64,000 bases of DNA from Bilabrum cf. latius (lineage: Eukaryota). Position 1 is the stretch's first letter. Each line of letters opens with the position of its first letter. The notes below the pieces were generated by a model. The model had not been told where the DNA came from, did no database searches, and saw nothing but the letters and a program-made list of their open reading frames with translations. Below are positions 4,969 through 54,506 of this stretch, in pieces. A program made the translations under genes and the position numbers. The DNA is taken from contig OZ237746.1 of NCBI GenBank assembly GCA_965178125.1, forward strand, positions 1,054,001 through 1,118,000, in the 5' to 3' direction.

Positions 4969-7047
4969 ATGAGCAGCAAGGCGCACAATTTCCTGAACCT
5001 AAAAGCATGGCACCCCAATAATGCCAGAAACCGGCGAAAGATTGCCGAAGCTGAGCAGGCGGTGAGCGCCCTTGCGTTGCAGAAGCTGCCGCTCGCACTT
5101 GCACCGTTCGTATGTCATTTTCGAAACGCGCGTTTACCCGCATCAACGCATTTCACCTCACCGCAGCATGCACAAAAGGTCAAGTCGGAGATCGATGCGA
5201 AGGCGCGACTGGAAGCCCAGTACGAAGCGATCAAGCAGCGCAGGTTGCTTGCCGAGGCGACCGGCGAGCAGGACCAGCTTGCAGGCACGGATGAAGGCAC
5301 GGCATGGATGTACGCAGGGCATGGGGTCGGGGATGGCGGCTAGGACGAAGCGGGGCAGGACCAGCAGACGCAGACCGAGGAGCAAGCTTTCCTAGCGAGG
5401 TTCCAGTCCGCCGTGGAGGGCGGAGACCGCGGGCTCGGCGGCGGCGGGGACCGGAAGCCCGCCCCAGTAGCGGACGGACGGGCCGCGTAGATGGCGATGC
5501 AATTCGGCGATGGCACCCTCGGTGATGAGAAGGCCGGGCTGCCGCGCCTGCCGGAGTCCTTCCGTCCCCGGCCGCGCGTTCCCAGGCAGGACGAGGACGA
5601 GGGCAAGCAGCCGAGCGAAGGGGGCGCGGGGAGGGCATCGGACGGATCAGGGGGCGCGGGTGCGGGCCCGTCCAGTGGCGAGGGTGCGAGCGAGGGCGAG
5701 GTTGACGATGGTGAGGAGGGCAGAGGGAAGGGCAAGAAGTAGTAGGTGAAGAAGAAGAAGAAGAAGAAGGAGAAGAAGAAGAAGGAGATGGGCCAGGCTG
5801 AGCTGGCCGTGCTGCGGGAAGACCCGCTGGCAGAGGAGCTAGGGCTCATGCCGGACTCGGACTCGGGCTCAGACTCGGATTCGGATTCGGATGCAGATTC
5901 CGAGGAGGAGGGGGAGGGATCGGTGTCTGGCAGGGGGGGCGTTGGTGGGGGAGAGGTAGAGGGACAGGAGGGAGCCGACTCGGGGTTCGGGTTCGGGCAC
6001 GGTCGGACCCGGGTCGGCGGTGGCGGCCGTGGGGAGGGGCAGAGTTAGTCTTTGGACATGCGGAAGGTGCTCAGAGACGCGAAGAGGCGAGCCAAGGGCA
6101 AGGGCAAGGGCAAGGATAAACAGGAAGGGGACAGTGGGGGTGATGGAGGTCAGGGCTAGGGCGGGGGGCATGTGGACGGAGGTGCGGGCAGGGGTGCGGC
6201 TGTGGGCCTGCCGTCATCTGCACCAGCGCCACCGCAAGGACCAGAAAACTTTGCAAGCTCAAGCTCAAGCTCCAGCTCCAGCTCGGCCTCTCGTGCAGGC
6301 GCTGGCAGCTCGCGCAGCATGCTGGGCTTGTCTGGGTCTGCAGCCCAAGCCTTGCTCAAGGCCGCGGGGGGCGGGCAGGTGATGGCCACACTGCTGGAAG
6401 CTGCTCCGCGGTCGGTCACAGATACTCCAGGTCTGGATGCGACAGCATCCGCTGGGCGAGCCCCACAGGGCGGGTTGGGGCACGGCAAGCCCGATGATGC
6501 CAAGGTCGATGATGGCGAGGAGGGCGAGAGGGAGAGGGATGTGGCCGCGGCTCTTCGCGTGCTGCGGGGAGTGGAGGGAGGCAGGGCCCGCCGGCAGATG
6601 ATCGAATCTCTGCCTCGGACGGTGGCTGAGGGGGTTGCTGCTCGTCTGTTGCTGCAGCAGCAAGGCTCGGGGGCGGAGCAAGGGCACGGCATGGGGGCTC
6701 GCGAGTGCCGGTTGCTACGGGAGGCCCAGGACAGGTCCATCCGGGGTGGCAGCAGAGCGAAGGGGAAGAGGAGCAGGGGGGAAGACAGCCGCGAGCGCAG
6801 GAGAGGAGACAGCCGCGAGCGCAGGAGAGGAGACGGCCGCGAGCGCAGGAGGGGAGACAGCCGCGAGCGCAGGAGAGGAGACAGCCGCGAGCGCAGGAGG
6901 GGAGACAGCCGCGAGCGCAGGACCAGTCACCACCGCGGTGGCCACCGCTCTAGGCACCATCGGCCCTCCTCCGATTCGGCCGGACATAAAAGAAGCAGAC
7001 GAGACGATAGGGATGAGGGGAAGGACAGAAAACGGCACCGCGGCTAA
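4969..7047 (+). CDS. CIR1/Cwc25-type (Cir_N domain) protein with charged low-complexity tail; intron 5062-5166; 6 in-frame TAG (5341, 5488, 5740, 5743, 6046, 6157)
   Basis: The N-terminus FLNLKAWHPNNARNRRKIAEAEQ and a later WMY motif are typical of Cir_N proteins. ORFs 4864.., 5491.., 5746.. and 6172.. are one frame separated only by TAG. Ends in TAA at 7045-7047. Confidence 0.8.
6784..6921 (+). repeat. 24-bp coding tandem repeat, ~5.75 copies, encoding DSRERRRG
   Basis: Unit GACAGCCGCGAGCGCAGGAGRGGA repeated head to tail with no spacers. Confidence 0.9.
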
Positions 7048-7290
7048 GCTTGCCACGCGTGCACCGCATTCAATGATGTTCCTGCTTCGGCCGCTCCAAA
7101 ACGCGGCGCAGCCAGTCCCGGAGATTATGCCCTAACATGTGCGTAATGGAAGTGAATCATTTTGCATGCCAAGTTTCCGTGTTTTGTCTTGCTGGCATGG
7201 AAGCGCCCGAGGTTATAGGGTTTGAGATCCATTCCACCGACAGCCAGTGGCAAGCTCTGGTGGACGTCCACCCAAACGCAACAGCTTCCA

Positions 7291-8436
7291 TCAGATCCAC
7301 CCCGGGGCTTTCGGAAACAACCGGATCGTGGCGTATGCCACGGAGAATAGGCCTGCGGCGGCAAACACCGCACCCATGGACCGGCAGAGACTCCAGCAGC
7401 CTTTGGACACGTGCGCGTCCGCCCTGGCCGCGGCCGCCTCGGCCCCGTGTGCGCCCTACTCGGCCCCTTCCCGCAGATGGTCGAGTGTGCCCAAGTCCTC
7501 TCGAATAGAACCCCCCACGACCTGTGCCTGCTCTCGCAGCGCCCCCACCGCCCCCGCGATCGATTCGAGGATCCCGTCGGCGCCCCGCTGCCCGCTCCCT
7601 TCGCCCCCCCCACCCCTGCCGCCGGCGCCTCTCGCGATGTTTCCAGCCGCAGACCACGGATTGGATCTTCTCGATCCGGGATCGGTCGGCTGGCCCAGCA
7701 GCTGGGCCCGAGCGGAGCGCAGCCGCCCCGCGGTGGTCTGCTCGCGAGCCCCTGGCAGCGGCCCCACCCCCCGCTCGGGGGACGAGCCAGCGGCTGCTGC
7801 CGGGCCTGCGGTTCCACTTGGGCTGCGTGGCTGCGGTGGCACGTGAACCTGCGCATGCCCCCGGGTGTGGCCGGGCTCGACGCCGCCGCTGCCGCCGTGC
7901 CTCTCGCTCGAATTGCCGCGGGGGATCGGCTGGGAGGCCACTGCGGCTCTCACAGCCCTGGAGCGATTCCTGAGCCAGAGCGCTACCCTGCGCCACCTGG
8001 ATTCCAGCGACGCAATCGACGAGACGGCGTTCACACCTTCTCGTTTGTGAGCGCCTCGAGGCGGCGGCGTGGCCTGCGCCGCAGCAGCGCCTGGCGGCCC
8101 ACCCGCGCTAGGCCATGAAAGGCGGAGCGCAGGCTCGTTCGCGTCTGACCACCGCTTGTTCAAGCGTAGGATTAGCCCAAACTGCTGCGCATGAGCTCGC
8201 GCGAGCCGAAGCAGCATGTCGCGGCACGCTTTCGACAGAGCGGCCAAATGCACGATACGCACGTCCTCTTTGCTTGCAGCCGGGTGAAGCAGTGCAATCA
8301 TACCGCTGATCGAAGTACCGTCTTTCTAAAGGGCCGTTCGGCGTTCTTCATCTGCTCTGGCGCACGCACTGAGCATGCGCTCGGAGGCCTCGATGGAGCG
8401 TCTAAGCTGCGCTCCGAGGGCCACGGCCCGCGCCAT
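7291..8436 (-). CDS. USE1: USE1-like ER Qc-SNARE (tail-anchored); 2 in-frame TAG (8326-8328, 7456-7458)
   Basis: Starts MARAVALGAQLRRSIEASERML...L*KDGTSISGMIALL and has a C-terminal heptad region. After the TAG at 7456 comes ...KGCWSLCRSMGAVFAAAGLFSVAYATIRLFPKAPGWI-TGA, a single C-terminal TM helix ending IRxFPK as in USE1. Internal introns cannot be excluded. Confidence 0.6.
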
Positions 8437-8737
8437 GCCTTCCTCAAAGGTTCGTCAGAGTATCCAATTTAGTGTAGCTAGTTCAGAAGCGCATGCTCGT
8501 GGTCACTGTCGGTAGCAAGTAGTGCTGCGCAGCTGGACAGCCCGGCACAGGCGCCCGCAATCTGGCGGATTCCGGCCTCGCGGCCCGCCGGCGCCCCCTC
8601 CCTGCCACTGGCAGTCGGTGCCACCGTCGAATTCGATCCAATGGGAATTGACGCTGCCGACGGCAACCATCCTAACAATCGCTGTCTGTTGCACCTGTGC
8701 ATTTCAATAGTCTGTGCAATTCACCGAGTCGCCGGCC

Positions 8738-11700
8738 TCAGGTGCCCCTCCGTCCCTTCTTCTTCCGCCGGCGACCCCTGCCCGCCGGGGCCTGTCCGGC
8801 CGACCCTGCACCGCGTTCCAAGGAAGGGGCCTCGCCCGTGGTCCCGCCGCTCCCAGCAGCACTTGCTCCATGGCCTCCCTGCAGGATGGTCTGTGTCATG
8901 GCAAGCACCTCCTCGATCTGCTCCGCGCTCAGAGAGGCAAGCCCCTCCGGCAGGCCAGCGCCAGCACCATCATGCGATGCACCCGCACCCGCACCCGAAG
9001 CCGGCCCGCCGCCGCTTTCACCCCCCTGCTGCTGCTGCTGCTGCTGCTGCGCGCCGGCAGCCGCCCCGCGCACCATTCGCTGCAGCAGGTCACGCGCCCC
9101 CTGCGACTGCAGGAACTGCTCCGCCAGTCGCCTCTGCTGCTGCTGCTGCTGCCCAGGGTCCGCCTGGGCCTGGGCCTGGGCCCGGGCGCGGGCCTGCTGC
9201 TGCTGCGTCCTCGCCGGCCCGTGACCCGCTCGCCCCCCCATGCCAGCGCCCATCCCCGCCCCGGCGGCCGCCTTGTGCCCCTTCTGCTTCTCCTTCTCCT
9301 TCTCCTCCTCGGCCAGGGCCTGCCTTTGCTGGAGGAATCGGCTCACGGCCACTCCCCGGGACCGGTGCAGCCTGGCCTGCAGCGCGGCCCGCCGCACCAC
9401 CGGGTCCTCCGCGTCCCCCACCACCGCCTGCAGCAGCCGCGCCGCCTGCTCCTGCGCATCGGCCGCCGTCTTGAACTGCCCTACCGTCGCCCGTGCCCGC
9501 GCCAGCAGCTCCAGCGCGGGCACGGCGGCGTACACGTCGGCCTCGGGAGAACGCGCCTTGAGCGCCGCCTCGGCCGCCTGCTGCGCCCAGGCCGCGTGCC
9601 CGCACCGCAGCGCGTCCTCGGCAGACCGCAGCAGCATCTCAGGCACGGAGGGGTTGGACGAGTCCCCCGCCGCCAGCCGGGTCAGCAGCAGCGCCCGCTG
9701 CCAGCAATGCGCCGCGCCCTGCACGTCTCCGCACCGCGCTAGCGAGCGAGCCAGCTCCCCGTAGGCCGCCGCGGTGTCGGGGCTCTCCAGCCCGCACACG
9801 CGCTCCGCCGCCACCACCGCCCGCTGCGCCGCCACGGCCGCCTGCGTTAGCTCCCCCAGCCCCGCCAGCGCCCGGTGCGCCACCCTGAGGGCCTCCACGA
9901 AGTCAGGGTGGCTCCCGTCGCACACGGCCAGCCCGTGCTGGGTCGCGTCGTAGGCCATCTGCAGCGCCTCCTCGGCGCGCCCCTGCGCCAGGGCGTCCTT
10001 GGAGCCGTCCAGCAGCGCGCGGGAGGTGCCCGGCGACGCGTCCTGCGCCGAGGTCCGGATGACGGGCACGAGGGCGGCCACGTCGGCGGCCCCGAGCGGC
10101 GCTGGGGTCGCGCCCAGAGCCACGGGGCGGGCCCGGAGGCGGATGCCGGCCAGCTGGCACACCCTCCGCAGAAGGGACACCCGCGCCGGCTCTTCCGCGG
10201 CAAGCGATCCACCCCCTGCGGCCCAGCGGCCCTTGAGCTCGTAGCCCTCGAACGACGAACGCACACGCTCCCGCACCCCGGCCCACACCCCGGCCGGAGT
10301 GAGTGCCCCCGAGGCGGAGGACCGCAGCAGCAGCAGCTCCCTGACGCAGCGAGCCCCCGAGGGCCAGGCCGTGCACGCCGCGCCCCCATTGGTGGGCGAG
10401 GCATCCTCGGTGCTGCCCCCCTTCGCCTTGCCCTCGCGTCCCTTGCCGGCCTCTTCATCGCCGGGCAGGCAGTCGCCCGCGGGCCCGTGCTCCACGCCCG
10501 CCAGCTCCAGGCCGCCCTCGGGATCCAGCAGGTCAGAGACTGCAGCGGCGGCCGCCAGGCGCTCCTAGTCCTCCTCTCTTTCCGCACCACCGCCCTTGCC
10601 CTTGCCCTTGCCCTTGCCTTTGCCCTTGCCCTTGCCCTTGGGTGGGGGGCGGGCTAGAGAGGGCCGGCCGATCGCCTCGGCCACGGCCGGCGGCAGATCC
10701 ACTCCGCAAGCCGAGGCCACTCCGGCCGACACAGCCACCCATCCCACCGGGTCCGGGTGCCACGTGTCCCCGTCCTCCGCCGCTTTGGCTTCGCTGCCTC
10801 TCTGCCCCTTTGCCCCGACCAGGCAGTTGAGGAAGGCAGCCACCGCCGGGGTCGGGCACTCCCGCAGGGCCGGGCGGCCGTCCAGCAGCCTCGATAGCAT
10901 GCCCGCCGCGCTCCGAGCCACCATCTCCCCCTCTAGCAGATCCAGGGCCCACCGGTGTCCGGCCTGCATGCGAGCGGGGGCGGGCGAAGGCTCAGACTGA
11001 GACTGAGACTCGGGCGGCCCCTCCTCCCCACCTAGCCGTAGCATGGCACGAGCCACGCCTCCCATCCGGTGAGCGGGCACGCCCATTGCATCCAAGGCCC
11101 TCGTCAGCGAGGAGCCGTCCACGCTCGCCGTGGAGCTGGCCAGCAGGGCCCGGGCCAGGCGTGGCACCAGCGAGTCCCTCACGTACTACCCGCAGCCGAG
11201 GGGACGCTCCTCCTCCTCCTCCTCCTCGCCGCCGCTCTCGTGCTCCACGCCCTTATCCTTCGTTTCCTGCTTGTGTTTGTCTGGCAGCAGACAGACGGCG
11301 ACCCTTCGCAGCGCAGCGGCGCTCGCTTCCACCCGCCCCACGACCCCGTCCTCGCCGCAGAGGGCCTGCGCCTCTTCGGCGGGCAGCGGCCCCTGCTTGC
11401 TCCCATCACCGCCACCGACCTGCTCCTGCTCCTTCTCCTGCTCCTTCTCCTGCTCCTTCTCGCCCCCTTCACCCTGGTCGCCTCCCGCGCTCCTGGCACG
11501 CACTGCCACCGGCACCGCAGGGTCAAAGGCCTCGAGCCCCAGCAGCACCCGCAGCTCCCTGTCGCCCCCCACGCCGTACTTGTCCAGCACGTCCTGCCCC
11601 AGGCCAGCCAGCGCGTCCGCCATCATGGAACCGTCCGGCGCCCGGGGGACCCCATCCTGGCCCTGCACCACCGTGCCCTGCAAGAGATCTTGCTGCAGGG

Positions 11701-14700
11701 AGCTGCAGTGCTCAGCAAACACGCGACGGGCCACCGTCCTCGAGTCGCCAGCAGCGCCAGCACCACCACCTGCCGACGGCGCCGCCCCACCCTCGGTCGA
11801 GGCAGCAGTCTTGGCTCCAGCAGCGTGCCACACGGCCGCAGCGACCTGGAGAGCCCCCGCCCTGCCCGCCTCGTCCTCGCTGCCCTCCCTCAGCACCTCG
11901 GCGGCGCCCTGCAGCTCGCAGTCGGCGTCGTGGGCGTCCTACTCGAGCTCAGACGCGAGGGCCGCCCGCTGCCGGGCCACCACCATCACCTGCCGGACCG
12001 TGTCGAGGGGCAGCAGCTGCCGCAGCCGGGCCAGCACCAAGCTCTCCAGCTGTTCCCCGCGCCGCTGCTCCAGCTCTCCCCGCTGCTGGGCCACCGCCAG
12101 CGGGGAAACCAGGGGGGCCTGCCCCGCCGCGCGGCTGGGGCCCAGCAGCGCCGCGGCCACGGCGAGCCAGGGCAGGCCCTCGGGACCCTGCGGACCCTTG
12201 CAGCTGCGCACCACCTCTGCCGCCCTGGCCACGAGTCCGGACTCATCATCAACTCCACCCGAGATTTCTGCCGGCCCCGCATCCTCACCGCCGCCCTCAC
12301 CTGCTCCCGAACCCGCCCCTCCGCCCAATCCAGCCCGTTCGAGCGCCTCGCGGGCGTCCTGCAGCGCAGCCTCATCGACCCGCGGCGCAAACACTGGAAG
12401 CAGCGAGGTCCCATCGAATCCATTGCGCCCCGACTGCTTCATCCGCCCCTGACCCTGCTCCTGCTCCTGCCCCTGCCCCTGCCCCTCCCTGGGCACGGTG
12501 ACAATGTACCGCCGCGAGGCACCCACCAGCACGGTGCACCCCAGATACGGGAGGGCGGCGTCCTGCCTGTACAGTCCCGCCCGGATGCGCTCCACCACCC
12601 GCTCGGGGTGGCTCCACATGTCACCGTCCTGGGCGGCCCCTGCTGCAGCGCGTGCGGCGCGAGCCACCCACTGCCCACCCGCCCCAACTTCGGATCCAGC
12701 GGCCCCTCCAACTCTCTCCTCCTCCTTTTTGTTCTCCTGCTGCCATCCTCCCACAGCACGCAGCTCCCACGGCTGCGATCTCCCCGCTCCTTCCCCTTCC
12801 GCCTCCCCTCCCCCTTCCCCTTCCCCTTCCCCTTCCCCTTCCCCTTCCCCTTCCCCTGGCGAACCCCCCGCGCGCTGCTCCCAGGCCCGCTGCAGCAGGG
12901 CACGCACCCTGGCCCAGCGGTCCTCCGGCCGCAGCACACGCCGCACCTCCAGCCCCCCGATACTCCACACAACGCCGCGCTCCTCCTCCTCCTCCTCCTC
13001 CTCTATTGCCGCGCTGCCGGACTTCTGCCTGCCCTCGCGCGTCGGCCGCACCTGCCCTGCGGCCACCGCGCACGCCGCCCGCACGGCCGCCTCGGCAAAG
13101 TCCCTCTGGATGCGCCACAGGGTCCGCAGGAACACGAGCCTGCCCGCAGTGCTCATGCAGGGCAGCTGTAGGGCGCGCTCCCAGTCGCGATTGAAGTCAC
13201 GCACCTGGAACCCCCCGATCTGACCCCCCTGCAGGGGTCCGCCCGCCGCGACGGCACCCACAGCCGCTTCCCCCGCCCCCACGGCCTGCAGGCCCTCCCG
13301 GATGCGCTTCAGACCAGCGCGCACCGCCTTGCGAGCGCCCTCGAACCCCCCGCGCGGAGGCCCCACCCCCTCTCCCTCTCCCTCTCCCTCTCCCTCTCCC
13401 TTGCCGCTGCCCTGTTCCTGCAGCTGCTTCTCCCTCTCGTCGATGGAGGCCTTCAGTGCCGCCTCCAGCTGCTCCGTCATCTGCTGCAAGATCTGACTCC
13501 CGATCCCCTGGTCGTCCTCGTGCTCCACCTGAGACTGCCGGCCCGTGATGGCCAGCCCGAGGCTGCCTGACGACACCTCCCGCTCGTCCGCAAGGGACGC
13601 CAGCCCGCCCACACCCCCGTGAGGCACGCCGTCCGACAGGCCAGCGGCGCCGTTCGCAGCCGCCGCCGCCCCGGCCAGCCCGCGCAGGGGACCGGCCGCC
13701 CGCTCCGCCGCCCGCCGAGCCACGGCACCCGCCAGCAGGCCCGAAGCCTCGCCCTCGCCCTCACACTCGCCCTCGCCAGCGGAGAGCTGCCTGGCCGCCT
13801 GTCTCTGGCTGCGGTTGGAGGCCATGCGCAGCCAGTGCAGGAAGGGCTGCAGGCGCCCCCGGCCCTTCCCCACGGATACACCCGCCCCTCCCGCGCACCA
13901 GGGGGCATCGCATGGCTCCAGCCACTCCACGGGAGCGGCGGCTAGCCCGGCTGCCAGCCCCGCAGGCACGAAGGGTGCCCCCGGCACCAGGCCCAGGGGA
14001 GCCCCCGCCCCCAGCCCGGCGCAGTTGGCCAGGATGGCGCGTGTCTGCGGGTGCACCCGAGTGGAGGAGGAGGAGGAGGAGGAGGAGGAGGAGGAGGAGC
14101 CATCGCTCCCCACGGCCCCACCCCGCGAGGAGGGCGGCGCCAGGGGGGCGGGTAGCAGCAGCGCCGCGGATACCTGCAGGTCCAGCGCCGAGGCGATCGT
14201 GGAGAATGCCCTGCGCTGGGACTCGCGCACCGAGGAGGCCGCGGCGTCCATGTACTCGGGGAGGCCTCTCGCCACGAGCGCCAGCAGCCCGGGGAGGGTG
14301 TCGGCCCGCAGCGAGACCGCGCGGCGGGGACCAGACTAGGCTCCTGTTCCTGCTGCGTGCCCCTTGCCCTTCCTGCCCCTGCGGCCGCTGCCGCCCCCAC
14401 CGCCACCACCGCCACCGCCGCTGTCAGCAGCGCCACGCCCGCGCACCCAGAGCACGGCAGGCCTGGAGTCCAGCGTGCCCGCCGCCACGTCGGACCGGTC
14501 CACGTGGAACCCCTCCGCCGTGGCTGTCACGTGCACAGAGGCCCCCTCCGCCGTCTCAGCCACCAGGTAGGCCAGGTCTCCCCGCGCCGCGCGGTCCGCC
14601 GGCGGGGGGTTGAAAGGGGACCAGCGCAGGGAGGTCACGGGACACAGGGGCATGGGGGCCACGGGCGGGGGCGGCACACCATCGCCCGCGACCGCGCGCC

Positions 14701-16039
14701 TGCCATCCCTGCCTGATGCGACGGCCTCGTCTCGCGCGGCCCTGTCAAGGCCCATCCACGCAGGGCGGGGGCCGTGCGGCTGGAAGGCCCCCGGGCCCGA
14801 CCTCTCAAAGCCCAGCTGCGGGTTGCTCAGCGGGGGAGGGACCGCCCATGCTAAACCTTTGCGATGCGCCGCGGCTGCGCCCCGCGCCCGGCCGTCCTTG
14901 CCGGAACCGTCACCAGCACCGCCCTGACCATCACCGTCCCCGTCGGCACCCAGCGCCCCAAACACGGCGGGGATCAAGCCGGCCCCGGTGCCAGCCACGA
15001 AGTCATCGTCCCGCTCGCCCCCGTCCCCACCCCCCCCTTCTTCCACCCAAGCGGACGATCGAGCCAGCGCGGGCACCGGCACGTCCGCCGCCAGCGCCCC
15101 CGCCAGCCGGTTGGCCGCCCTGGCCTCGGACAGCAGCTCGCCGGGGGTGCGCACGTGGTCCGCGAGCGGGCTGGGCAGCGACAGTCCACCGCCCCGGCCC
15201 TCGAGACGGTCGGCGACCGCCCTCGTCGCCCTGGCCTGCTGCTTAGCAGCGGCCACCGAGGCCCGAGCCGAATCAGAGAGCCCATCCTGCTTCTGCTTCT
15301 CGACCGTGCCCGTGCCCGTGCCCGTGCCCTGCGGCGGGACAGAGTCCTTGCCCGTGTCCTTAATGCCCCGCAGCACCTCCCGCACCGAGTGCAGCCGCCC
15401 CGGACCCACGTCCCGGAACGGCCTCCTCTGCCCGGGGGCTCCCCCCTCCCCTACCCCCTCCTCGCCCTCCCCGGGCCCCTGGTCCTCCTCCAGGTCCTCT
15501 GGCCCCTGCATGAGGGGCACCGGCCACTCCTCGTCCAGGCCAACGGCGCCCTGGCTGAGCAGGCGCTGCGTGGCCGTGGCGTGCAGCGCAGCGTCCCCCT
15601 GCGTGTAGGGTCGCGGACACAGCCGCAGCTCGCTCTGACGCGACAGCTCCCCCGGGGCGCAGGCGGCCGCGAGCGAATCGTCGTGCCCCAATCGAATCCA
15701 CGCACCCTCTCGATGAGCTCGAAGCTCGAGGTCGTAGCACGTGTAGATGCATGCGGTCCTGGATTGCTGCAAGGCTTCCTTCACGGACTTGCACGTCTCG
15801 GACTACTTTTGCACCGACACGACCGTCCGCATGCCACGCGGCAGTTGGACTGGCAGAAACAGCTATACAGCTACATCTTGCTCTGTTGGCACGCCCGCCG
15901 GTGCCGACGGGCTCGTAGCTGCATCGGTGCCAGGACCCGACTGCGGTGCTCCGGCGGTGTTCCCCCTTTCTGGCTCAAAGTTGGCCGCCTAGCTGGGATC
16001 AGACCCAGTTGATCCAACGATTGGAGATTGATCTGACAT
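8738..16039 (-). CDS. CLUH: Clustered mitochondria protein (CLU/CLUH/Clu1), ~2433 aa; 7 in-frame TAG (15989, 15863, 15803, 14336, 11939, 11186, 10565)
   Basis: CLU_N (ACIYTCYDLEL...RPYTQGDAALHA), SLRWSPFNPPPADRAARGDLAYL...TAEG...VTATAEGFHV, RDFNRDWERALQLP, the central domain YVRDSLVPRL...DGSSLTRAL, and C-terminal TPRs (AQRAVVAAERVCGLESPDTAAAYGELA). One frame over 7.3 kb, ending TGA at 8738. Confidence 0.9.
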
Positions 16040-16426
16040 AATAATACAATGTGCGGGTGACTGGCGCGATAGATCGGACAGATTCTGAATGAACCGCCGA
16101 CTAAGCTCGAAGCACTTGCTGCGTGTGGGAACCGCAGGAGTTCTCGTTGGTTGTGTCGCTAATCGCGTATACACCGGTGTGGTCGCAAGAGACCGTAATA
16201 AATAATCCAGCTATTCAAAGGGTGGATCTATTTAACCCTTCGAAGTGCGACAGCGAGCGAGACGAAAGAACTCGCATCAAATCGGATTTTTCAATCGTCA
16301 CCTCGGCCGAAATTGCACGGAACTTGGGATCCGAGACGGATTACAAAGCAGAGAGTCAGGTCGTCCAGGCAAGCCTTCGCACGGGGTGATAGCACAGTGC
16401 TTTGGATTATATCTTAGTGGGCTACC

Positions 16427-18445
16427 ATGGATGCGCTAGAGTTTGCGATTTTCAGGGGAGAGCAGGGGTGGACGGCCTACAAAGAGTTGCTGCTGATAGA
16501 GGGGATCGAGCTTCATGGAATGGGCAACTGGAAGTGAGGCACCGCAGCCAATTTGTTTTCAAGTTCGATAGATAAAGTGCATGCGGGCATCCTGCTCTTG
16601 ACACAGCCCCAGAGCCCCTGCCTGCTTGACGCACCGGCGCACCCGGTTCGAACGTGGCCGCTCTTTTCTAGTGCTAGCATTTCACGCGATCGCAGGGAAA
16701 TTTCGAGCCACATTGGAAGCGTGTCTCCGAAAGAGTGCGAGAGGCATTACACTAAGGTGTACCTGGAGAGCCGAGCCGATTCGTACCCGCTGCCTAGGGA
16801 GGACCTGCTTGCCACTGGGCCCGCGGTGCCAGAGCCCGCGGGCGGCGCAAAGGCCCCGTCAAGCTCTGCGGCTGGAGGCAGCAGTGCGCCCACATCGGGC
16901 GCGGCTGTCTCGAGCGGACCGAGCTCAGGCGATGCTGCCGCAGCCGGCGGTGCCACCAGCGCTCAGACGGCAGACGGCGAAGCCCAGGGCAAGGGGCGCG
17001 CAGAGGATGGGCAGGAGGGCCACCCCACGACCTCGGGGCTGAGGCCATCCGGCAATCCCCCGCCACCGACCCCGCCTCGGGACAGCCAAGCCGAACGAGA
17101 CGGAGACGGAGACGGCGCTGCCGCCCCCATCGCCCCGCACCCCGCGCTGCAGGCCGCCGCCCGGGTCGCGGCCCGGGACTTTGGGCCTGCCGTGCTGCCC
17201 CGCCCCCAGGAGCTGCGAGACCCCCCGCACCCGTCCGACGAGGAGAGCAAGGACCTGTCCGGGTACTGGCCCTACCGGGGGGAGTTCGAAGTGGAGCACG
17301 ACAACGACGCGGAGCTGCTCATCGCGGACCTCGAGTTCAACGAGGGGGAGCACGCCACCGAGACGGAGCTCAAGCTGCAGGTGCTGGCCATCTACAACGC
17401 GCGGCTGGCGGAGCGGATCCGCCGCAGGAACTTTGTGCTGGAGCGGGGCCTGCTCGAGTACAAGAAGCAGCAGCAGCTGGAGAGGAGGAGGCCCAGGGCG
17501 GAGCGGGCGGTGCTGAGCGCGCTCCGGCCCATCAGCCGGTTCCTGTCGGCGGGCGAGTACAAGGAGCTGCAGGACGGGCTCGTGGCAGAGATGCGCCTGC
17601 GCAAGCGGATCCAGGAGCTCAGGGAGTGGCGGCAGGCGGGCTGCCGCACGCTGCTGGACGGGGAGGAGTACATGCAGGCCAAGAAGACCAGGGAGGAGAA
17701 GATCAGGCTGCAGAAGTCCAGGCAGGCGGGCGGGTACGGGGCCGGCGCGGGGCCGGGGGGCCTGGGCGGCAGCGAGAGGCGAAGGGGCGCGGGGCTGCTG
17801 TCTGCGGGGGGGGGCGCGGACGGGGGCGCCGAGGGGGGTAGGTCGGGGCGGAGGGGGCGGCGCTCGAGCCGGGGCACCGGTCGCGGACGGGGAAGGGGCC
17901 GGGGCCGGGGCCGGGGCCGAGGGCGGGGGCGGGGGCGCGGGGGCCGCGGGGGCGGTGGTGGAGGGGGTGCCCGCGGCACTCCGAGGGCGGGCGGCCCGGC
18001 GGGGGACTCGGATTCGAAGGTGGATGCGGATGCGGAGGGCAAGGGCGAGGGCAGCGGCAATGGCATAGGGGAGGTGGGTAGCGCGGCCATGGAGGGGAAC
18101 AGCGATGGCGAAGGGGCAGCCGGTGGCAGCGGCAGCGCGGCGATGGCACGGATCGAGCGAGCAGGTTCCCCCGCCCCTGCGCCCGCTCCTGCGCCCGCTC
18201 CTGGCTCGCACCCCGGTGGAGGTATGTCGGCCTCTGGGCCCGTGACCCTTCCAGAGCCCTCGCTGGAGTCCATGGGGCGGCACGCTGCGGAAGCGCAGGG
18301 ACAGGGGACACTTGCGCCACTCGTGCAGACCGGGGAACAGGGCCAGGGCCAGGGGCAGGGCCACGGGAGCGCACCCTCGGTGCCCCCCCAGCTCGCGAGT
18401 GCACCGGCAGCGGCACCAGCTCCAGGATCGTCGTCATACACCGCC

Positions 18446-18484
<39 letters not shown>

Positions 18485-44600: not shown

Positions 44601-47600
44601 CGCCGTCGACTGGCAGGGACAGGGGCAGGGCCAGGGACACGGGCAGCACGGCGTGTCCACGATGCCCCGTCTGGATCTGGCGCTGCAGTCGCCCCCGCCG
44701 CACGGGGGGGCTCGGTTGCGGTTGCGCGGGGACGGGGGCGGGGCCGCCTCTGAGGAGTTCAACCCCAGGGCCAGCACGCGGAGCCTGGGGAACTAGGGGA
44801 GGCAGCGGGCCCTGCGGCACCACGCCACGGCGGGGGAGCGGGTGCTGGCTGGCACCGGCGGCGCTTCGCCGTCCTCGCCCTCCTCCTCGTCGCAGAGGGC
44901 CCGGCTGCGGCCTGGCACTGGGGCCGCCCGGCTGCTACTCGACGCGGGGAGGTCCCCGGGCCTTTTCCTGGAGGGCGAGGGGGTGCTGGGCGGCGGGGGC
45001 CCAGGGGGAGAGGGCGAAGAGGATCAGCAGCAGCAGCAGCAGGCGATGACCTTCATGGAGCGGGCGAGGGCGAGCACGGTGTCCGGCGTGGGGCGGAGGC
45101 AGGCGGGCACGGGCGCGGGCTCGCGCGGCGCCGGGTGGGGAGGGTCTGGTTCCGCCCCCGCGGCCATGACGGTGGAGCAGGCGATCGAGGAGGCCCTCGT
45201 CAGGACCGGCAGCGCCGACCCGCCCGTGCCCCCCAGCTGGGCCACTCTGTTCGCCACTCCGGCCCCGGAGCAGCCCCCCCAGCTGGTGCTGGTGCGGCAG
45301 AGCGGGTTCTTCGGCGGCAGCTACGCGCAGACCCGCGCCCCCGTCACGGAGCGGGTCACCACTGGCCCCTGGGTCTCGTTCGGCGGCATGGGGAGCGGGA
45401 GGCAGGCGCGGCCGGCGCGCCGATTCGCGGAGCGGTTCGTGTACGACCACTGCGGGGCCCTCGGTCTCTCCCGGCGGCTGGCGGCGGCCCTGGCCTACCG
45501 CGGGACGGACGTGAGCGCGGCCATCGCCGCCATTTTGAGGGAGACGGGGGCCGGGGCGGGCGGGGGAACAAGGGTCGCGGAGCTTGCAGAGGCGGCGGGG
45601 CGGGCGCGCCGCCGCGGGAGCCTCATGCAGTCGGGGCGGGCCCTCAACCGGTCTGGCAGCATCCGGCGGATTCCCTCTCGCAGGGCAAGGATCGGGGCGG
45701 CGCTGGGCCTGGGGGAACAAGGCGGGCGAGGAGGTGGGGCGGGGGAGCAGGACGGAGGGGAAGGGGAGAAGGGAGGCGCGGCGGGTGCCCCCAGCCTGCA
45801 GCGCCGTCTCACCGCCCACGGCCGGGCCTCCCGCCGCGACGTGGCCACGGTGCGGCCCAGCGACAGGCTCGGTCTCGCGCTGCACGGGCACGGGCACGGG
45901 CATGGGGCCGGGGGGAGCAGCGCCAGCGGTGGCGGCGGGTCCGTGGGTGGATCTGCGGGGGTGAGGCTGGGCGGCTCTCCGGGGGAGCAGGTCCACGGGG
46001 GCGGGGGCGGGTCCGGTGCAGGGGAGCACGAGGGCAGCGGCGGGTACACCTCCAGCGACGGCGTGGGTGCCGGGCGGGAGGGCGGCGGCGGGCCTGGCGC
46101 GTTGGAGCGCGGTGCCGGTGCCACTAGCGAGGAGGGCCGCAGCGTCAGCGGGCCGGTGCGTCGGCTGGGGCGGCGCGCCTCGGCGAGCATGACGTCCCCT
46201 CACAGGCACGCGAGACACGCAGCCCGCTTCCGCGTGCCCGACGCCTCGCTGCTGCTGGCGCGGGCGCAGGGAGCCGCGGGCGGCGACATGCGCAAGCAGA
46301 GGGTCAAGACCACGTCCAACAGGGTGGGGACGGGGCTGCGGCCGCACACGTGGGGCATCCAGGGGCGGCTGGCGGGGACGGTGGCTGCGCTGTCCCGCGC
46401 GAGCACCGCCACCTCCCGCGCTGGCCAGCATGCGGCGGAGCACGGGAGCGGGGCGAGCGCGGGGGGCACTCCCGTTCTGTCTGAGGAGGGCCTCCTGGGC
46501 GGGGATAGCCTCGACTGGACCGTCGCGCTGGAGGCCATGCTGGACAACGATCCCATGGCGCTCCCGTTCGGGGCCTGCGGACGGCGGGCGGCGGAGCGGC
46601 GGGAGGAGGCAGAGAGGGAGGTGGAAGAGCGGAAACAGAAGGAGACGGAAGAACGGCTGCGAGAACAGATAGAGAAGCAGGAGCAGCAACCGAAAGTCGG
46701 GAAGGGGGGCCCCAGCGTCGCAGGAGAGGGAGAGGGAGAGGGACATGGTGGTGAGCTCGTGGCTCTCCCGAGCCGGCTCGAGCGGGTGCGGCGAGCCACC
46801 CTCTCCAGCGGGAGCGGACCCTCGCCCATGGCAGCCGGCGCGTTGGGGTTCTCGAATGGCGGGGCGGGCTTCAGCCCCGTGCGCCGCTCGCACAGCCGGC
46901 TGCTCGCGCTCCAGCAGCAGGGAGGGGGGGTCTCTCCCGCCGGTGGGGGGGCGGGTGCGGGCGGCCGCTCGACGCCGCCCCTGTCTCCCATCCACCGGCC
47001 GAGCAACGGCGGCAGCGGCGGTGCCGGGTGGGGCGATGGGTCTTCCTCCCAGGGCGGCTCTCCCGGCCGCAGGGGTGCCCGCGCCCGGCGGGGCACCCGC
47101 ACTTTTAGGTTTGGAGAGCTGGCCAGGACGAGCACGGGCCAGGGGTCCATGACAGGGAACAGCCCGAACGGTGGCGCGGGCGGCGGCTCTCCTTCCTTGG
47201 GGGCATCCTCATCCCCGGCTGGGTCGCCGTGGGGAGCCAGCGCCAACGGGCCCGCCGCCATGTCTCCGTCTCCGTCCTCGCCTCTGGCACCGCCCCCAGG
47301 CACATCCCCGCTGGTCCTTGCTGCCTTGGTGCGGTCCAGGGGTGGAATCCTCGGGCCTGGGCTGGGAGCAGCGGGAAGTTCCCCTGGCGGGGGCCCGCGA
47401 GCGAAGGTGCAGGGTGCTCGGCAGGAGGGGGAGGAGGAGGGGGAGGAGGGTCACCGCCAGCGCTTCGGCTCCATGGCGGCCCCGAGGTCGTCCTCCAGAG
47501 ACCTCCTCAAGCGGGCGGGCGATCGGACTGCCGTGCCGAGCCCCCTGGCGCTGACCAACGGGACCAGAGGGGGCCAGGACCAGGGCTCCGAGAGCTCCGC

Positions 47601-50211
47601 CAGCGGAGCGGGTGGGCCGCGGGAGGAGACCGCGTCCTGGAGCGGCCCCATCGCTGGCCGAGGGGTGGGAGCGGCAGCGGGAGCGGGAGCGGGGACCGGA
47701 GTGCAGCGGGATGGGGCCGACGGCGAGATGCCTCGCCTTGACCTTGTCTCGGGGGCGGCAGGTGCGGGTGCCGGCACCGCCGGGGCGCTGCAGGCCTAGC
47801 AGCAGCAGCAGCTGCCCGCGGCGGTGCTGCGGGTGCTGGGCGGCACGTCCCTGCTGCAGCTGAGCGAGTCGGACAGGGCGCAGATCGTCCGGTGCGGGCA
47901 CCTGCTCAAGAACCGTCCTTCGGCGCTGGGCAAGTACATGAGGAGCGTGGCGTGGGTGGACGGCGCGCAGGCCACCGCCGCCCTGGGTTTCCTGTACCGG
48001 TGGCGCACGTATCCCCGCTCGCAGGCCGCTCTCAACCTTGAGCTGCTGGACGCGGGGTTTGGGAACGCGCACGTGAGGCACGTGGCATGCTCGGGGCTCG
48101 ATTCCATGGGGGACCGCGCCTTCTCCGAGCTTGTTCCCCAGCTGGTGCAGGCCCTCAAGGCCGAGCCGCTGCTGGTGAACTCGACGTGGGACCTGCTGCT
48201 GCGTAGGTCGGTGCGGTCCCCCGCGGTGGTGGGCATGCCCCTCTTCTGGTCGCTGCACGTGGAGGCATCGTCCAAGTCGCTGTGCTACCCCCGCTTCAGC
48301 AGCTACATCGCGCTGCTCTGCGCCGCGCTGCCCGTGTTCGTCCGCCGGATCCTCGCCCAGCAGCTGGACGTGTGGGGCCGCAGGGGCGCCTTCGCGCGGG
48401 TGTGTCTTGCGGTCAAGACCGCCAAGGCGCGGGGGCTCCGGCGGGCCGACGTGTCTGCGCTCGCTCGCCGGCTGTTGCGGAGCGTGGCCCGGCGCCTGCC
48501 CTCCCGCATGGTGCTGCCTCTGGACTGCCGCGTGGTGGTTGGGCGGCTCATCCCCGAGAAGTGCAGGGTCATGGACTCGGCCAAGCTGCCCATCTGGCTC
48601 GTGTTCGAGTCGCCGGGGGACGACGGCGACGAGGACGAGGACGACGAGGACGACGAGCATGCGGAGGACGAGGCCGAGGCGACGAGCAGCGCCCCGGCGA
48701 CCGCTACCGTGGCCAGCGAAGGGGAGGGTAACGGCACCGTCGGCCCGGAAGACGCCGAGCCGGCCCGCGGCGCCGTGCTGGCAGGTACAGGTCTCGCGGC
48801 CCCCGAGCCACCGAGAGATGGAACCCGTGCGCCTGCCTCCGCCTCTGCCTCGATGCAGCCGCGGCCGGGGGGCAGCTGGGCCGAGGCCCGCGTGCAGGAA
48901 GGCATGGCGAGGGCTGCTTCGGCGGACTGGGCGGGGCTTTGGCTCGGTGACAGCGCGCTGGCCGAGGATCTGGTCCGCTTCGAGGCCGACGAGAAGGACC
49001 AAGGGCAGGGACAGGTGCAGGGGCAGGGCCGCCAGCGGTCCACTAGCAGGATCAATCGCATCGTGGGGGACTCTACGGGCAGCGCACGGCGGCTGCGGCG
49101 GCGGCACGACGGCGAGGAGCTGGAGGATGCGGTGCTGGCGGCTCTGCCCGTGGACGGTGACGGTGACGGTGACGGTGCAGGGGCGGAGCGGGCGGGGGCG
49201 GCAGAGGCCGAGACCACCGGCCCGCGAGTGGCTCTGCCAGCTCCAAGGCCGAAAGAGGAGTAGCAGGGCCACGGGAGTGAGCGCAAGGAGGAGGCAGCCG
49301 CTGGAACCCAGACCGGCGCAGCGGGCAACAGCAGTGGCGGCGGGAGCTCTGGCCGGGTCCAGGTCCGCCGGCACCGCAGGCGCCCGGAGGAGCGCGCGGC
49401 GAAGGGCCGCGTGATCATCATCTTCAAGTCCGGGGACGACATCCGCCAGGACACGGTCACGCTGCAGCTGCTCCGGTCCATGAACGGCATGTGGAGGGAG
49501 GCGGGCGTACCGGTGATCCTGACCACGTACAGGTGCGCGCCCACGTGGGACCTGGGTGGGCTGGTGGAGGTGGTGACCAACGCGGACACGGTGGCCACGA
49601 TCCAGACCGAGATGGGAGGCAAGAACACGGGCGCGTTCTCCGACGAGGTCATGCAGAAGTGGATCGAGAAGCACAACGGGCCGGAGGGATCCCCCCGGTT
49701 CGAGGCCGCGAGGGACCGGTTCATCCGGTCCTGCGCGGGCTACTGCGTGGCGACGCACGTGCTGGGGATCGGGGATCGGCACAACGACAACATCATGGTC
49801 AAGCGGACGGCGGAGTTCTTCCACATCGACTTCGGGCACTTCCTGGGGAACAAAAAGTACCAGTTCAACATCCTGAGAGAGAGGACGGCCTTCGTGCTGA
49901 CCCCCGAGATGGCCGTGGCCATGGGGGGGGAGGGCTCCGAGGGGTACGAGCGGTTCCTGCGGCTGTCGTGCGAGGCGCTCCAGGTGCTGCGGAGGAGGGC
50001 GGACGAGCTGGTGAACCTGCTGCTGCTGATGCTGCCCTCTGGCATGCCCGAGCTGAGGTCCAGGGACGACATCGGGTTCGTCTCGGAGATGCTCGCCCTG
50101 GGCCGCTCCGACGAGGAGGCAGCGCTCATGTTCCGCAGCGAGGCCAGCAAGGGACTCAAGGACGTCTTCAAGCGGGTGGACAACCAGATGCACATCCTGG
50201 CACACGCATGA
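37393..50211 (+). CDS. Giant class I-like phosphoinositide 3-kinase (~4272 aa) with C2, PH, helical and kinase domains; 10 in-frame TAG (38539, 38575, 39532, 41518, 41995, 42556, 43714, 44794, 47797, 49261)
   Basis: Ten standard-code ORFs from the track lie in one frame separated only by TAG. RBD-like LVFKFAGVREYL, C2 WLCTRIPLGQVPQESVLLVEI...LADHLGRLRSGRHSVRMWP, PH YGWLRKLG...WKRRWFVL...MDQWIDAI, helical ELVPQLVQALKAE, and kinase KCRVMDSAKLPIWL, IIFKSGDDIRQD, SCAGYCVATHVLGIGDRHNDNIM, FHIDFGHFLG. Stop TGA at 50209. Confidence 0.85.
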
Positions 50212-53289: not shown

Positions 53290-53411
53290 GTTGCCGGGGC
53301 CGGGATTCGAATGGTGTGGGAGTCGCCTTCGTGGACTTGGCCTGTCCGGTGATGTGAAGGCTCCGGGTGCGACTCGGACTAGTAGGTTCTCTACTGCTGG
53401 GCCGCAAAGTG

Positions 53412-54506
53412 TTATCTTCCCGCCCCCGATGCCGCCGCAACCCCCCCGGCGCCAGCACCCTTGTCCGCCTCAGCACCGACCACCTCACCGCCCCCACTCT
53501 CGCCTTTGTCCTCTTCCTCGTCCTCATCCTCCCCGTCATCCAGAGCCACCACGCCATCCTCCTCCCCTACCAATGGACCCCCATGGGCATCGCTCGAATC
53601 CTCCGCTCCTGCCGCTGTGCGACCTCCAGCACCATCGCGAGAGTCACCCGCCGCGCCCGATTTACCCCTGCCACCGCCCCTGGCCGCCGCGTCCTCGCCA
53701 AGGCGAGCATCGAGCACTTGCTCCACCGCCAGCAGGAGCGACTCGATCTGGGCCGCCAACACGGCGCCCCGCCGCGCCACCCCTTCGCCAGGTGCCGGCG
53801 CTCGTCCCCCGAGGCCGCCGCTTCCCCTCCTGTCCTCTTCATCGCCCGCGGAGCTGTGCCTCTCCAGCTCGCCGAGCGGTGCGAGCAGCGAGCGGAGCGC
53901 GGGGAGCAGCCGGCGCGCCTCCCAGCGGGCCGATCGGCTTTGCGAGAGGTCCACGGGATCGCTTGCGCCGCTAGAGTCGCGCTCTTCAATCTCTTGGACC
54001 TCCATGAGCAGGTCGGAGGACGCAGAGACCACGCTGTCGGAAGCAGACAGGCCGATCTGGATGTGGCTGCGATCGGCGGATTGGCCGTACAAGCGCGCAA
54101 GCAAGTTCGAGGGTGGGCAAGGGCGATCGTAGGGCAAGGCGCGCGCATCAATCAATGGGGCAATCCCTCACTCTTCGAATCTAGAGGCCAGAAGAGAAGC
54201 AGCCATGGCTGCCATAGGAATCACCCACGCGCTCGGCGTTTCGCAATCCGGCCAGCGCGGCAAGTCCCCGCCTTTTCCTGAAGATCCCGAACCAACGAGT
54301 GAGTACAGGCCATCTGCTACGATGCAGGCGTCTTTCGATGCGGCAATCGTCTTCAAAACGGCAAGAAGTGCAGCCTCTGGGTCCGCAGCAGATACCCAGG
54401 CGCTTGAAGCATGCTGCGCTGCCCTCAGGCGGGCAGACAGCACGGCAACATAACTCGCATGCCCGGATGTAGCGCAGTCACGAAAATCAGCGGCTTCTAC
54501 GCTCAT
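53412..54506 (-). CDS. Hypothetical helical protein with acidic tail; intron 54067-54171
   Basis: Exon 1 MSVEAADF...SRFE joins via GTGAGG...TCGCAG in frame to DHIQIGLSASDSVV... Stop TAA at 53412. The start could instead be 54215. Confidence 0.6.

Follow-up and report, generated by a model that had tools for sequence, protein, structure and literature searches.

In eukaryotes the nuclear genetic code has seldom changed, and changes that split UAG from UAA are rarer still. The stretch of 64 kb analyzed here (the window) raises the question of whether UAG stands for an amino acid and UAA continues to terminate translation, as a preliminary description had claimed. This claim was borne out, as the coding signal ends at two TAA sites and probably at a third. 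With a probability of about 0.8, the window derives from a compact, intron-poor flagellate of 68% G+C, probably a stramenopile near the bicosoecids, in which UAG encodes an amino acid (most likely glutamine) and genes end mainly in UGA, with UAA as a minor but real terminator, which corresponds to NCBI table 15. A sense UAG together with a UAA that terminates beside UGA is supported as the best fit to all tests in this single window, which holds three gene ends with TAA (n=3) and has a coding third-position G+C near 0.85.

In-frame TAG as a sense codon

Nineteen coding stretches comprising 15,808 codons were curated, and 41 TAG, no TAA, and no TGA triplets were counted in frame; the difference between TAG and the other two triplets within coding sequence is far beyond chance. 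A 42nd in-frame TAG was found in exon 1 of the U1-70K gene, inside the U1snRNP70_N domain. In-frame TAGs were carried by 12 of the 19 curated genes, some of them within Pfam domains (Rft-1 and U1snRNP70_N), and roughly two in three genes of the window would be truncated by gene prediction under the standard code. Leaving TAG open yielded ORFs 4353 and 2497 codons long, with PI3K and CLU domains along their length:

37393 to 50211, + strand: giant gene of 4272 codons for a PI3-kinase, with TGA stop; TAG in frame 10 times, TAA and TGA 0 times
8738 to 16039, - strand: CLU (clustered mitochondria) gene of 2433 codons, with TGA stop; TAG in frame 7 times

The same pattern was observed when triplets on both strands were examined for coding-like sequence on both flanks. 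By the GC3 criterion, such flanks were found for 23 of 464 TAG, 5 of 1011 TGA, and none of 157 TAA triplets. By the likelihood criterion, which is free of gene models, the counts were 51/464, 7/1011, and 1/157, respectively.

Contigs from three runs guessed to be RNA (X5, X6, and X7, here called RNA-type) and from a DNA run (X3) were compared over a 20-kb stretch, with the TAA at 53412 lying outside of it. This stretch includes the two exons of the U1-70K gene:

25807 to 25956, - strand: U1-70K exon 1; U1snRNP70_N (PF12220, E 2.8e-8, above the cut-off); in-frame TAG at 25873-25875
24413 to 25678, - strand: U1-70K exon 2; RRM_1 (E 6.9e-15) and a Gly/Arg/Tyr-rich tail; in-frame TAG at 25331-25333

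Two introns were confirmed by the contigs. The U1-70K intron (25679-25806) is absent from X6 record 22, which spans exon 1 and keeps both U1-70K TAGs, and the intron of the enoyl-CoA hydratase (ECH) gene (19807-19983) is spliced out of X5, X6, and X7 and present in X3. The TAG at 25331-25333 is covered by X6 record 22 and X7 record 29 with no differing letters. All seven CLU TAGs were found in ungapped RNA-type contigs (X7 records 25 and 26, and X5 records 10, 11, and 12), and the runs holding these contigs also carry the spliced ECH joint. With 42 TAGs in 12 genes and both U1-70K TAGs kept in a spliced contig, UAG was observed in the coding sequence of mature mRNA.

The in-frame TAGs might instead represent introns, pseudogene lesions, assembly errors, edited sites, or occasional readthrough, with TAG not reassigned at all. 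Most TAGs are indeed located in low-complexity, poorly conserved stretches, and highly biased conserved genes (for example ATPS, eIF3L, epimerase, ECH, uL23, and a CDK-like kinase) are TAG-free. However, introns or decay cannot yield a TAG:TGA:TAA ratio of 41:0:0, as TGA triplets outnumber TAG two to one in the window. The covered TAGs also show no differing letters in either the DNA run or the RNA-type runs and are retained upon splicing, while none of the 18 complete genes ends in TAG. An unreassigned TAG is thus scarcely credible.

Stop codons at gene ends

Among the 18 curated complete gene ends, TGA occurred in 15 and TAA in three, and UAG was not used as a terminator in this small sample (0/18). 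The stop codons counted in the preliminary description held for the three TAA ends, with the triplets located at 7045-7047 (+), 24413-24415 (-), and 53412-53414 (-) as claimed, while its 16 TGA ends became 15. The features concerned are the following:

4969 to 7047, + strand: CIR-like coding region; N-terminal Cir_N domain (E 0.00099, under the Pfam cut-off)
7045 to 7047, + strand: stop codon TAA of the CIR-like gene, preceded by ...DRKRHRG
24413 to 24415, - strand: TAA ending the U1-70K gene (TTA on the + strand), after ...EQGYRY
53412 to 54005, - strand, from the first ATG: hypothetical acidic, low-complexity protein from the ORF table; position-specific G+C 0.78/0.57/0.72, coding-like
53412 to 53414, - strand: TAA probably ending this hypothetical gene of 197 codons (TTA on the + strand)
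33516 to 33518, + strand: TGA as the stop of ribosomal protein uL23, illustrating the prevailing stop codon
19160 to 19162, - strand: TGA ending ECH; RNA-type contigs continue for 112-139 nt past it

The CIR-like gene contains six in-frame TAGs (5341, 5488, 5740, 5743, 6046, and 6157), and its translation raises the suspicion of an in-frame intron near the 5' end. A metagenome scan for U1-70K orthologues returned none among the 40 loci listed, which were all generic RRM proteins with 27-51% identity over the RRM region only. For the hypothetical protein, no Pfam family was found.

The end of the coding signal was assessed by the third-position A/T content (A/T3) past the stop and by a coding versus 3'-flank likelihood. 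The latter, along with G+C by codon position, was used in place of a codon-usage model trained on Pfam domains, which discriminated poorly in low-complexity coding sequence. Past the TGA stops of 15 genes, the log-likelihood ranged from -0.02 to -0.91 per codon. The coding signal collapsed in the same manner past two of the TAA codons: A/T3 rose to 0.55 in the 40 in-frame codons past the CIR-like TAA, with a log-likelihood of -0.66 per codon, and reached 0.57 past the U1-70K TAA, with -0.95 per codon. The contrast across these TAA codons is smaller than for most TGA genes, since the CIR-like and U1-70K genes are each weakly biased at the 3' end (A/T3 of 0.38 in the last 40 codons of each; log-likelihood of -0.28 and +0.18, respectively). 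Past the TAA at 53412, the log-likelihood was -0.12 per codon; the 41 codons from there to the next TGA scored -0.15 per codon, versus +0.42 in the last 40 codons of the gene. Here the gene end is probable but not certain, because A/T3 past the stop (0.28) is no higher than within the gene (0.33). Judged by composition, UAA therefore marks where the CIR-like and U1-70K genes truly end, and probably the end of the hypothetical gene.

Alternatively, both UAR codons could have been reassigned as in table 6, with TAA being a sense codon too rare to appear and the three genes really ending at the next TGA. In eukaryotes UAA and UAG commonly change together according to PMC5304391, and by composition the 41 codons that follow the TAA at 53412 look no worse than the gene preceding it. 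In contrast, the in-frame sequences past the TAAs at 7045 and 24413 are as non-coding as those past TGA stops. Readthrough of the CIR-like TAA would add 35 codons, with the next in-frame stops being a TAA at +33 and a TGA at +36 codons. For U1-70K, the next in-frame TGA is located 108 codons (324 nt) downstream, and the extension would consist of 107 non-coding-like codons (-0.70 per codon). The measured 3' UTRs are also short, with ECH contigs ending at 19021, 19034, and 19048 (112-139 nt past the stop) and the contigs of a 989-codon gene indicating at least 78 nt. By analogy with these genes, the U1-70K TGA would probably lie beyond the end of the mRNA; among the contigs listed, none reaches the 3' end of the CIR-like or U1-70K gene.

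Absence of internal TAA

A code of the table 6 type would also place UAA in frame at Gln positions and leave UGA as the sole stop. No in-frame UAA was observed at sense positions, a result of moderate statistical power, and two to three genes end in TAA. The earlier statement that internal TAA is missing although CAA is used agrees with the curated set (0 TAA in 15,808 codons; CAA 56 vs CAG 593). The accompanying caveat, that a high GC3 would make TAA-Gln scarce, proved to be both correct and important, as only about 3 to 7 were expected.

Taken alone, the zero count is circular, TAA and TGA having served to delimit the ORFs. The circularity was removed by three checks. Firstly, in the ORFs delimited upstream by TAA (CLU, Rft1, Pan3, and NEK), the sequence further upstream is non-coding-like, with A/T3 of 0.50-0.63. 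Secondly, a scan of all 157 TAA triplets by the likelihood criterion identified a single coding-flanked TAA, at 63216 on the - strand, which is antisense to the NEK kinase gene. Thirdly, the TAA at 62888 was located just within an intron (GTGAGGTAA), after the NEK exon end ...GTPYY.

If TAA were a synonym of TAG, 3.9-7.0 sense TAAs would be expected among the curated codons and 3.4-6.9 in the model-free scan, where none was seen. The probability of zero internal TAA is about 0.03 to 0.001, and about 0.03 under a CAA/CAG calibration. The absence is moderately beyond chance and is suggestive only. Because few sense TAAs are expected at this third-position G+C, the case for TAA as a stop rests mainly on the two sites where the signal ends. 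A reassignment of both codons gains some room from the small expectation of just 3.4-7 occurrences, but it conflicts with the flank scan, where TAA (1/157) resembles TGA (7/1011) and not TAG (51/464). On the evidence from both gene ends and flanks, such a reassignment is very unlikely.

Another possibility is a UAA with dual meaning, which terminates at gene ends and is occasionally decoded internally by context, as described for UAA in the trypanosomatid-type case of Blastocrithidia nonstop. Dual-use codes exist, as described in PMC12152300 and 10.1101/2022.04.12.488043, and rare sense use would be compatible with a window in which few internal TAAs are expected. However, internal TAA was not found in any of the 15,808 codons, nor was a coding-embedded TAA found in the model-free scans, and we regard this possibility as highly improbable. 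The preferred reading of UAA thus remains that of a terminator alone.

Amino acid decoded at TAG

The assignment of TAG was based on a single conserved column in Rft1, as the other TAGs are located in variable or low-complexity sequence:

55108 to 55110, + strand: in-frame TAG in Rft1 (Rft-1 domain, E 8.2e-74), at a mostly-Gln column

Among 150 homologues, retrieved with a query that carried Q at the TAG site, this column contained Q in 89, L in 15, A in 7, M in 7, T in 6, H in 5, and S in 4. TAG also adjoins CAG runs at 47797 and 57661. Among near relatives of the PI3K and Rft1 proteins, only two fragments span a TAG site, and both are unalignable low-complexity sequences. TAG is probably glutamine, as suggested by the Rft1 alignment.

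UAG could also encode a different amino acid while UAA remains a stop, in which case the code would not be table 15. The main candidate is glutamate: neighbor-context likelihood was highest for E, D, G, and Q, and placed E (6.6) over Q (-0.8), with Leu at -21 and Ser at -25. In addition, many TAGs are contained in Glu-rich acidic runs, and UAG as Glu has been reported in one ciliate (PMC10553269, as cited in PMC11687900). Glutamate is, however, outside of the seven commonest residues in the Rft1 column, where Q occurs in 89/150, and the CAG runs flanked by TAG also argue against it. An amino acid other than glutamine is therefore unlikely.

A tRNA-Gln with the anticodon CUA would read UAG and, following PMC5304391, would differ by a single mutation from tRNA-Gln(CUG). 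With a C at the wobble position, this tRNA is unable to pair with the A of UAA, which would leave UAA unread (PMC5304391). In eRF1, recognition of the G in UAG would be lost or weakened, with UAA and UGA recognition retained (PMC5304391). The mechanism suggested in the preliminary description, a UAG-blind eRF1 with a CUA tRNA, agrees with the one proposed for such codes by Panek et al. (PMC5304391). No tRNA genes were found within the 64-kb window, and the eRF1 gene is not within it.

Lineage of the organism

A quick tree of ATP sulfurylase placed the organism near the bicosoecid Cafeteria, suggesting that it is probably a stramenopile near the bicosoecids. Judged by gene content and relatives, it is not a ciliate. 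The genome encodes mitochondrial proteins, including CLU and an enoyl-CoA hydratase whose N-terminus resembles a presequence. As a separate observation, a search of eIF3L in the ESM Atlas confirmed only the family, and the commonest-taxon label (Bacillariophyta) is no taxonomic evidence.

Rft1 fragments of relatives, with about 57% and 89-98% identity, start just past the TAG column, as if these database sequences had been cut by in-frame TAGs. It is conceivable, though doubtful, that table 15 is the code of a whole clade, made up of this organism and uncultured relatives, all of them GC-rich heterotrophic stramenopiles resembling bicosoecids, which would represent the first nuclear code change in stramenopiles, in a genome of roughly 70% G+C where TGA instead of TAA is the main stop. 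No nuclear code variants in stramenopiles were reported in the literature searched, and the lineage carrying the table 15-type code may be new.

Comparison with known codes

The separation of UAG from UAA was described earlier as the rare case. Rare it is, but not new in kind, as published cases comprise a rhizarian, Iotanema, Scotinosphaera, Protocruzia, and phyllopharyngean ciliates, and UAG-only changes to other amino acids are also known (PMC5304391, PMC11687900). The window therefore adds a rare but already known type of code in a seemingly new lineage.

Table 6, found in ciliates, dasycladaceans, and hexamitids, reads both UAA and UAG as Gln, contains UAA in frame, and has UGA as its sole stop. 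The window shares with it the change of UAG from stop to sense, most likely to Gln, and differs in that no in-frame TAA was seen and two to three genes end in TAA.

Closer parallels are found among codes that decouple UAG. In the rhizarian exLh, where UAG is Leu, UAA and UGA are stops as in the window, with 56 UAA and 15 UGA ends described in PMC5304391. UAA is also kept as a stop in the green alga Scotinosphaera, where UAG is Ser (cited in PMC11687900). Neither amino acid fits the window well, given the context likelihoods (-21 for Leu and -25 for Ser) and their occurrence in the Rft1 column (15/150 and 4/150, respectively).

The probable Gln assignment with UAA and UGA stops matches the code of Iotanema spirale (Fornicata), for which a tRNA-Gln(CUA) derived from tRNA-Gln(CUG) and an altered eRF1 with T32G in the GTS motif are proposed (PMC5304391). 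In that account, Iotanema is described from a transcriptome and is an anaerobic metamonad, whereas the genome studied here encodes mitochondrial proteins.

Table 15 is described in PMC11687900 for the phyllopharyngean ciliates Hartmannula sinica and Trochilia petrani, and is reported there for Protocruzia tuzeti. As in Hartmannula sinica and Trochilia petrani, UAA and UGA are stops and UAG is not a terminator, and in the window UAG is probably Gln as well. Internal UAGs at Gln columns characterize the ciliate code (PMC11687900), where the window offers one conserved Gln site. Unlike the table 15 ciliates, the present organism is not a ciliate, has 68% G+C, and ends its genes in TGA (15/18) and TAA (3/18). 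Each new lineage with a split code tests ideas on the co-evolution of eRF1 and suppressor tRNAs, and the case here would be unusual for its very GC-rich genome with TGA as the main stop and for its apparently stramenopile lineage.

Gene content and transcripts of the window

The G+C content of the 64-kb window was 63-75% per 4-kb bin, and eukaryotic genes, identified by Pfam or by translation, were densely packed on both strands.

Genes of the window
CDK-like kinase gene
CIR-like protein gene, plus strand, TAA end at 7045, weak match to Cir_N
Tail-anchored protein gene, 381 codons
CLU gene
TADA2-like adapter gene
Enoyl-CoA hydratase (ECH) gene
Unknown protein gene, 989 codons
U1-70K gene, minus strand, TAA end at 24413, U1snRNP70_N and RRM domains
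eIF3L gene
Epimerase gene
Radial spoke protein 3 gene
Ribosomal protein uL23 gene, TGA at 33516
34102-37149, ATP sulfurylase/APS kinase gene
37393-50211, PI3-kinase (PI3K) gene, 4272 codons, with a PH domain
LRR-like protein gene
Hypothetical protein gene, 197 codons, minus strand, TAA end at 53412
54640-57297, Rft1 gene
Pan3 gene
NEK-like kinase gene, extending past the window edge

Two further coding-like regions without a family were left out of the codon counts: 1-2046, a minus-strand ORF running off the left end, and 60250-62160, with short high-GC3 pieces at 60377-60600 and 60901-61050. The C2, PH, PIK, and catalytic domains of the PI3-kinase (37393-50211) were separated by very long low-complexity stretches rich in Gly, Ala, Ser, and Gln, and its best named relatives were class I/II-type PI3Ks (39-41% identity over the kinase end). 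Only 243 nt lie between the ATP sulfurylase/APS kinase stop and the PI3K ATG, and the PI3K ORF continues in frame after that TGA with no further stop between (37147-37395). Other gaps were as tight, with about 21-34 nt for the ECH 5' UTR and about 80-140 nt for 3' UTRs. No tRNA gene was found in the 64-kb window.

Introns were scarce and of the GT..AG type. The ECH intron (19807-19983) was spliced out in contigs of X5, X6, and X7, three runs that behave as RNA, while splicing was absent from the DNA sequencing run X3; the U1-70K intron (25679-25806) was spliced out in an X6 contig. The runs X5, X6, and X7 carry organism labels unlike that of the DNA runs, yet they contained identical sequence with introns removed (6200-26199), which places transcripts of this organism within data labelled otherwise (co-culture, prey, or contaminant). 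Triplet-repeat coding stretches of the GAC/GAG/GGC and CAG types (8990-9160, 11420-11570, 18440-18490, and 22900) interrupted the assemblies of all four runs, producing many false joints and loose ends. Additionally, one RNA-type contig lacked 2 nt at 25108, within the Gly/Tyr repeat of U1-70K, probably through an assembly error.

TAG within coding sequence

No ORF was longer than 1068 codons when read in the standard code, and opening TAG extended ORFs to 4353, 2497, and 1746 codons. The two longest of these correspond to PI3K and CLU, each with domains distributed along it, and the third is antisense to CLU. The 19 coding stretches that were curated, 15,808 codons in all, contained 41 in-frame TAGs and neither TGA nor TAA, while TGA triplets were twice as common as TAG on the plus strand of the window (463 versus 236). 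Exon 1 of U1-70K held one more TAG, at 25873-25875 within its U1snRNP70_N domain. A gene-model-free scan of both strands agreed: coding-like sequence on both flanks, with no TGA within 30 codons, was found for 51 of 464 TAG triplets, against seven of 1011 for TGA and one of 157 for TAA; a version based on G+C by position returned 23/464, 5/1011, and 0/157, respectively. The TGA matches and the sole TAA match (63216, minus strand) all lay in known genes, but out of frame or antisense to them.

The TAGs were present in transcripts from the putative RNA runs. Contig 22 of X6, with the U1-70K intron removed, covered both U1-70K TAGs with zero differing letters, and the seven TAGs of CLU, together with one from the tail-anchored protein gene, fell within ungapped contigs of X5 or X7, where X5, X6, and X7 are RNA by guess only and single unspliced contigs may be DNA or pre-mRNA. 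TAG made up 41 of the 690 putative Gln codons, and its absence from strongly biased, conserved genes is expected for a rare codon. That UAG is a sense codon in this organism is close to certain.

The amino acid at TAG

The sole TAG in a well-conserved column was at 55108-55110 in Rft1 (EPMYILT-TAG-SELMYELRVRAEG). When 1.84 billion representative proteins were searched, the 150 best matches had Q in this column 89 times, followed by L (15), A (7), M (7), T (6), H (5), and S (4). Q had also been entered for the TAG in the query, although this cannot influence which residue distant homologues carry there. The adjoining E, P, and R columns were almost invariant, and a separate 19-row Rft1 alignment followed the same trend. 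CAG runs immediately followed the TAGs at 47797 (x-QQQQ) and 57661 (x-QQ). A likelihood computed from six neighboring residues gave E 6.6, D 1.3, G 0.4, and Q -0.8, leaving Gln and Glu unseparated, and leucine -21.4 and serine -24.6; judged by these neighbors, the Ser and Leu variants of other lineages are disfavored here. Fragments from close relatives overlapped the window TAGs solely within unalignable low-complexity sequence. Taken as a whole, UAG probably stands for Gln.

Absence of internal TAA

The preliminary description had proposed that UAA is kept as a stop while UAG is reassigned, noting that internal TAA was absent and cautioning that high GC3 would make a sense TAA scarce in any case. 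Both remarks held: the 15,808 curated codons included no TAA, and only 3.4-7.0 would be expected. Since third positions are very G+C-rich, NNA codons were rare, with CAA and CAG counts of 2 versus 77 in Pfam-domain codons and 56 versus 593 in all curated codons. Were TAA and TAG synonymous, the expected number of internal TAAs would be 3.9 by the CAA/CAG ratio (probability of none 0.02) and 7.0 by per-gene NAA/NAG ratios (probability of none 0.0009), and a model-free expectation was 3.4-6.9. As TAA itself delimits ORFs, ORF boundaries were also checked: in the four ORFs with a TAA upstream, the sequence before it was non-coding-like. The TAA at 62888 was rejected as a stop, since it forms the third triplet of an intron; the NEK-like kinase exon ends in ...GTPYY and GTGAGGTAA follows (62880-62890). 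By itself the zero count is suggestive; it is the terminal TAAs that carry the weight.

TGA and TAA at gene ends

The 18 complete gene ends comprised 15 TGA, three TAA, and no TAG; of the 16 TGA ends previously described, 15 were located and the sixteenth was not. Sequence past each stop was scored by contrasting codon usage in the curated genes with a model of the 150 nt after TGA stops, from which the gene's own flank was left out.

Log-likelihood per codon over the 35 codons past the stop, and over the extension to the next TGA
15 TGA-terminated genes: -0.02 to -0.91 over 35 codons past the stop
CIR-like, TAA 7045: -0.66 past the stop; next TGA after 35 codons, extension -0.66
U1-70K, TAA 24413: -0.95 past the stop; next TGA after 107 codons, extension -0.70
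Hypothetical protein, TAA 53412: -0.12 past the stop; next TGA after 41 codons, extension -0.15

The final 40 codons of genes scored mostly +0.17 to +0.76, except in the CIR-like (-0.28) and tail-anchored protein (-0.23) genes. In CIR-like and U1-70K, the A/T fraction at third positions rose from 0.38 before the TAA to 0.55 and 0.57 after it, respectively. The TAA at 53412 was a weaker case, where this fraction was 0.33 before and 0.28 after, and the log-likelihood fell from +0.42 to -0.12 across the stop. The 3' UTRs that could be measured were short, contigs of three runs terminating 112-139 nt past the TGA of ECH and one contig terminating 78 nt past that of the 989-codon gene. Purely by analogy, the U1-70K mRNA would finish well short of the next in-frame TGA, 324 nt downstream. 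These terminal TAAs support the proposed split between UAA and UAG, and UAA is very likely a genuine stop (probability about 0.85).

The heptamer GCTTGCC was found immediately 3' of both the uL23 TGA (33516-33525) and the CIR-like TAA (7045-7054), and the base after the stop was G in nine of 15 TGA stops. These may reflect a termination context or chance.

Lineage and relatives

Relatives of the ATP sulfurylase/APS kinase were found in public assemblies at 99% and 89% identity, followed by eukaryote-type long forms (61-65%) and a cluster with Cafeteria roenbergensis proteins (57%). A quick maximum-likelihood tree placed the window protein within a fully supported 16-row long-form clade that includes Cafeteria, where it joined a EukProt transcriptome protein and three others (95% SH-aLRT); the remaining half of the tree consisted of bacterial forms. 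The enzyme (34102-37149) has a C-terminal extension of about 280 residues common to this eukaryotic clade, Cafeteria included, and its catalytic part shares 52-56% identity with bifunctional enzymes of bacteria, a similarity suggestive of an old bacterial origin of the gene in this clade. The Cafeteria genome is reported to have about 70% G+C and 1.7-1.9 introns per gene (PMC6972860), a style that matches the window. Based on one gene and this genome style, the organism is tentatively a bicosoecid-like stramenopile.

Database fragments of related Rft1 proteins, P0003 (about 57% identity) and P0159 and P0005 (89-98%), began at the first Met past the TAG column or were split into several ORFs, as standard-code gene calling does to genes with in-frame TAG. 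This pattern in predicted proteins hints that the trait is common to a clade.

Comparison with known codes

The decoupling of UAG from UAA is an already known kind of code, since UAG-only codes are in print. A sense UAG with UAA and UGA as stops was, according to PMC5304391, first described in a rhizarian (Leu) and in Iotanema spirale (Gln). The mechanism proposed there combines an altered eRF1 (L69A-like in the rhizarian, T32G in Iotanema) with a tRNA(CUA) that a single mutation separates from tRNA-Leu(CAA) or tRNA-Gln(CUG) (PMC5304391). The tRNA and eRF1 changes that the preliminary description proposed for this organism would match that standard proposal. In later reports, UAG is cited as Ser in Scotinosphaera, and as Gln (NCBI table 15) in Protocruzia tuzeti as well as in Hartmannula and Trochilia, which are phyllopharyngean ciliates (PMC11687900). 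A literature search covering part of the journals found no nuclear UAG reassignment in labyrinthulomycetes, bicosoecids, stramenopiles, or GC-rich flagellates. Compared with the known UAG-sense codes, the code described here occurs in another lineage and in a G+C-rich genome, where TGA is the dominant stop.
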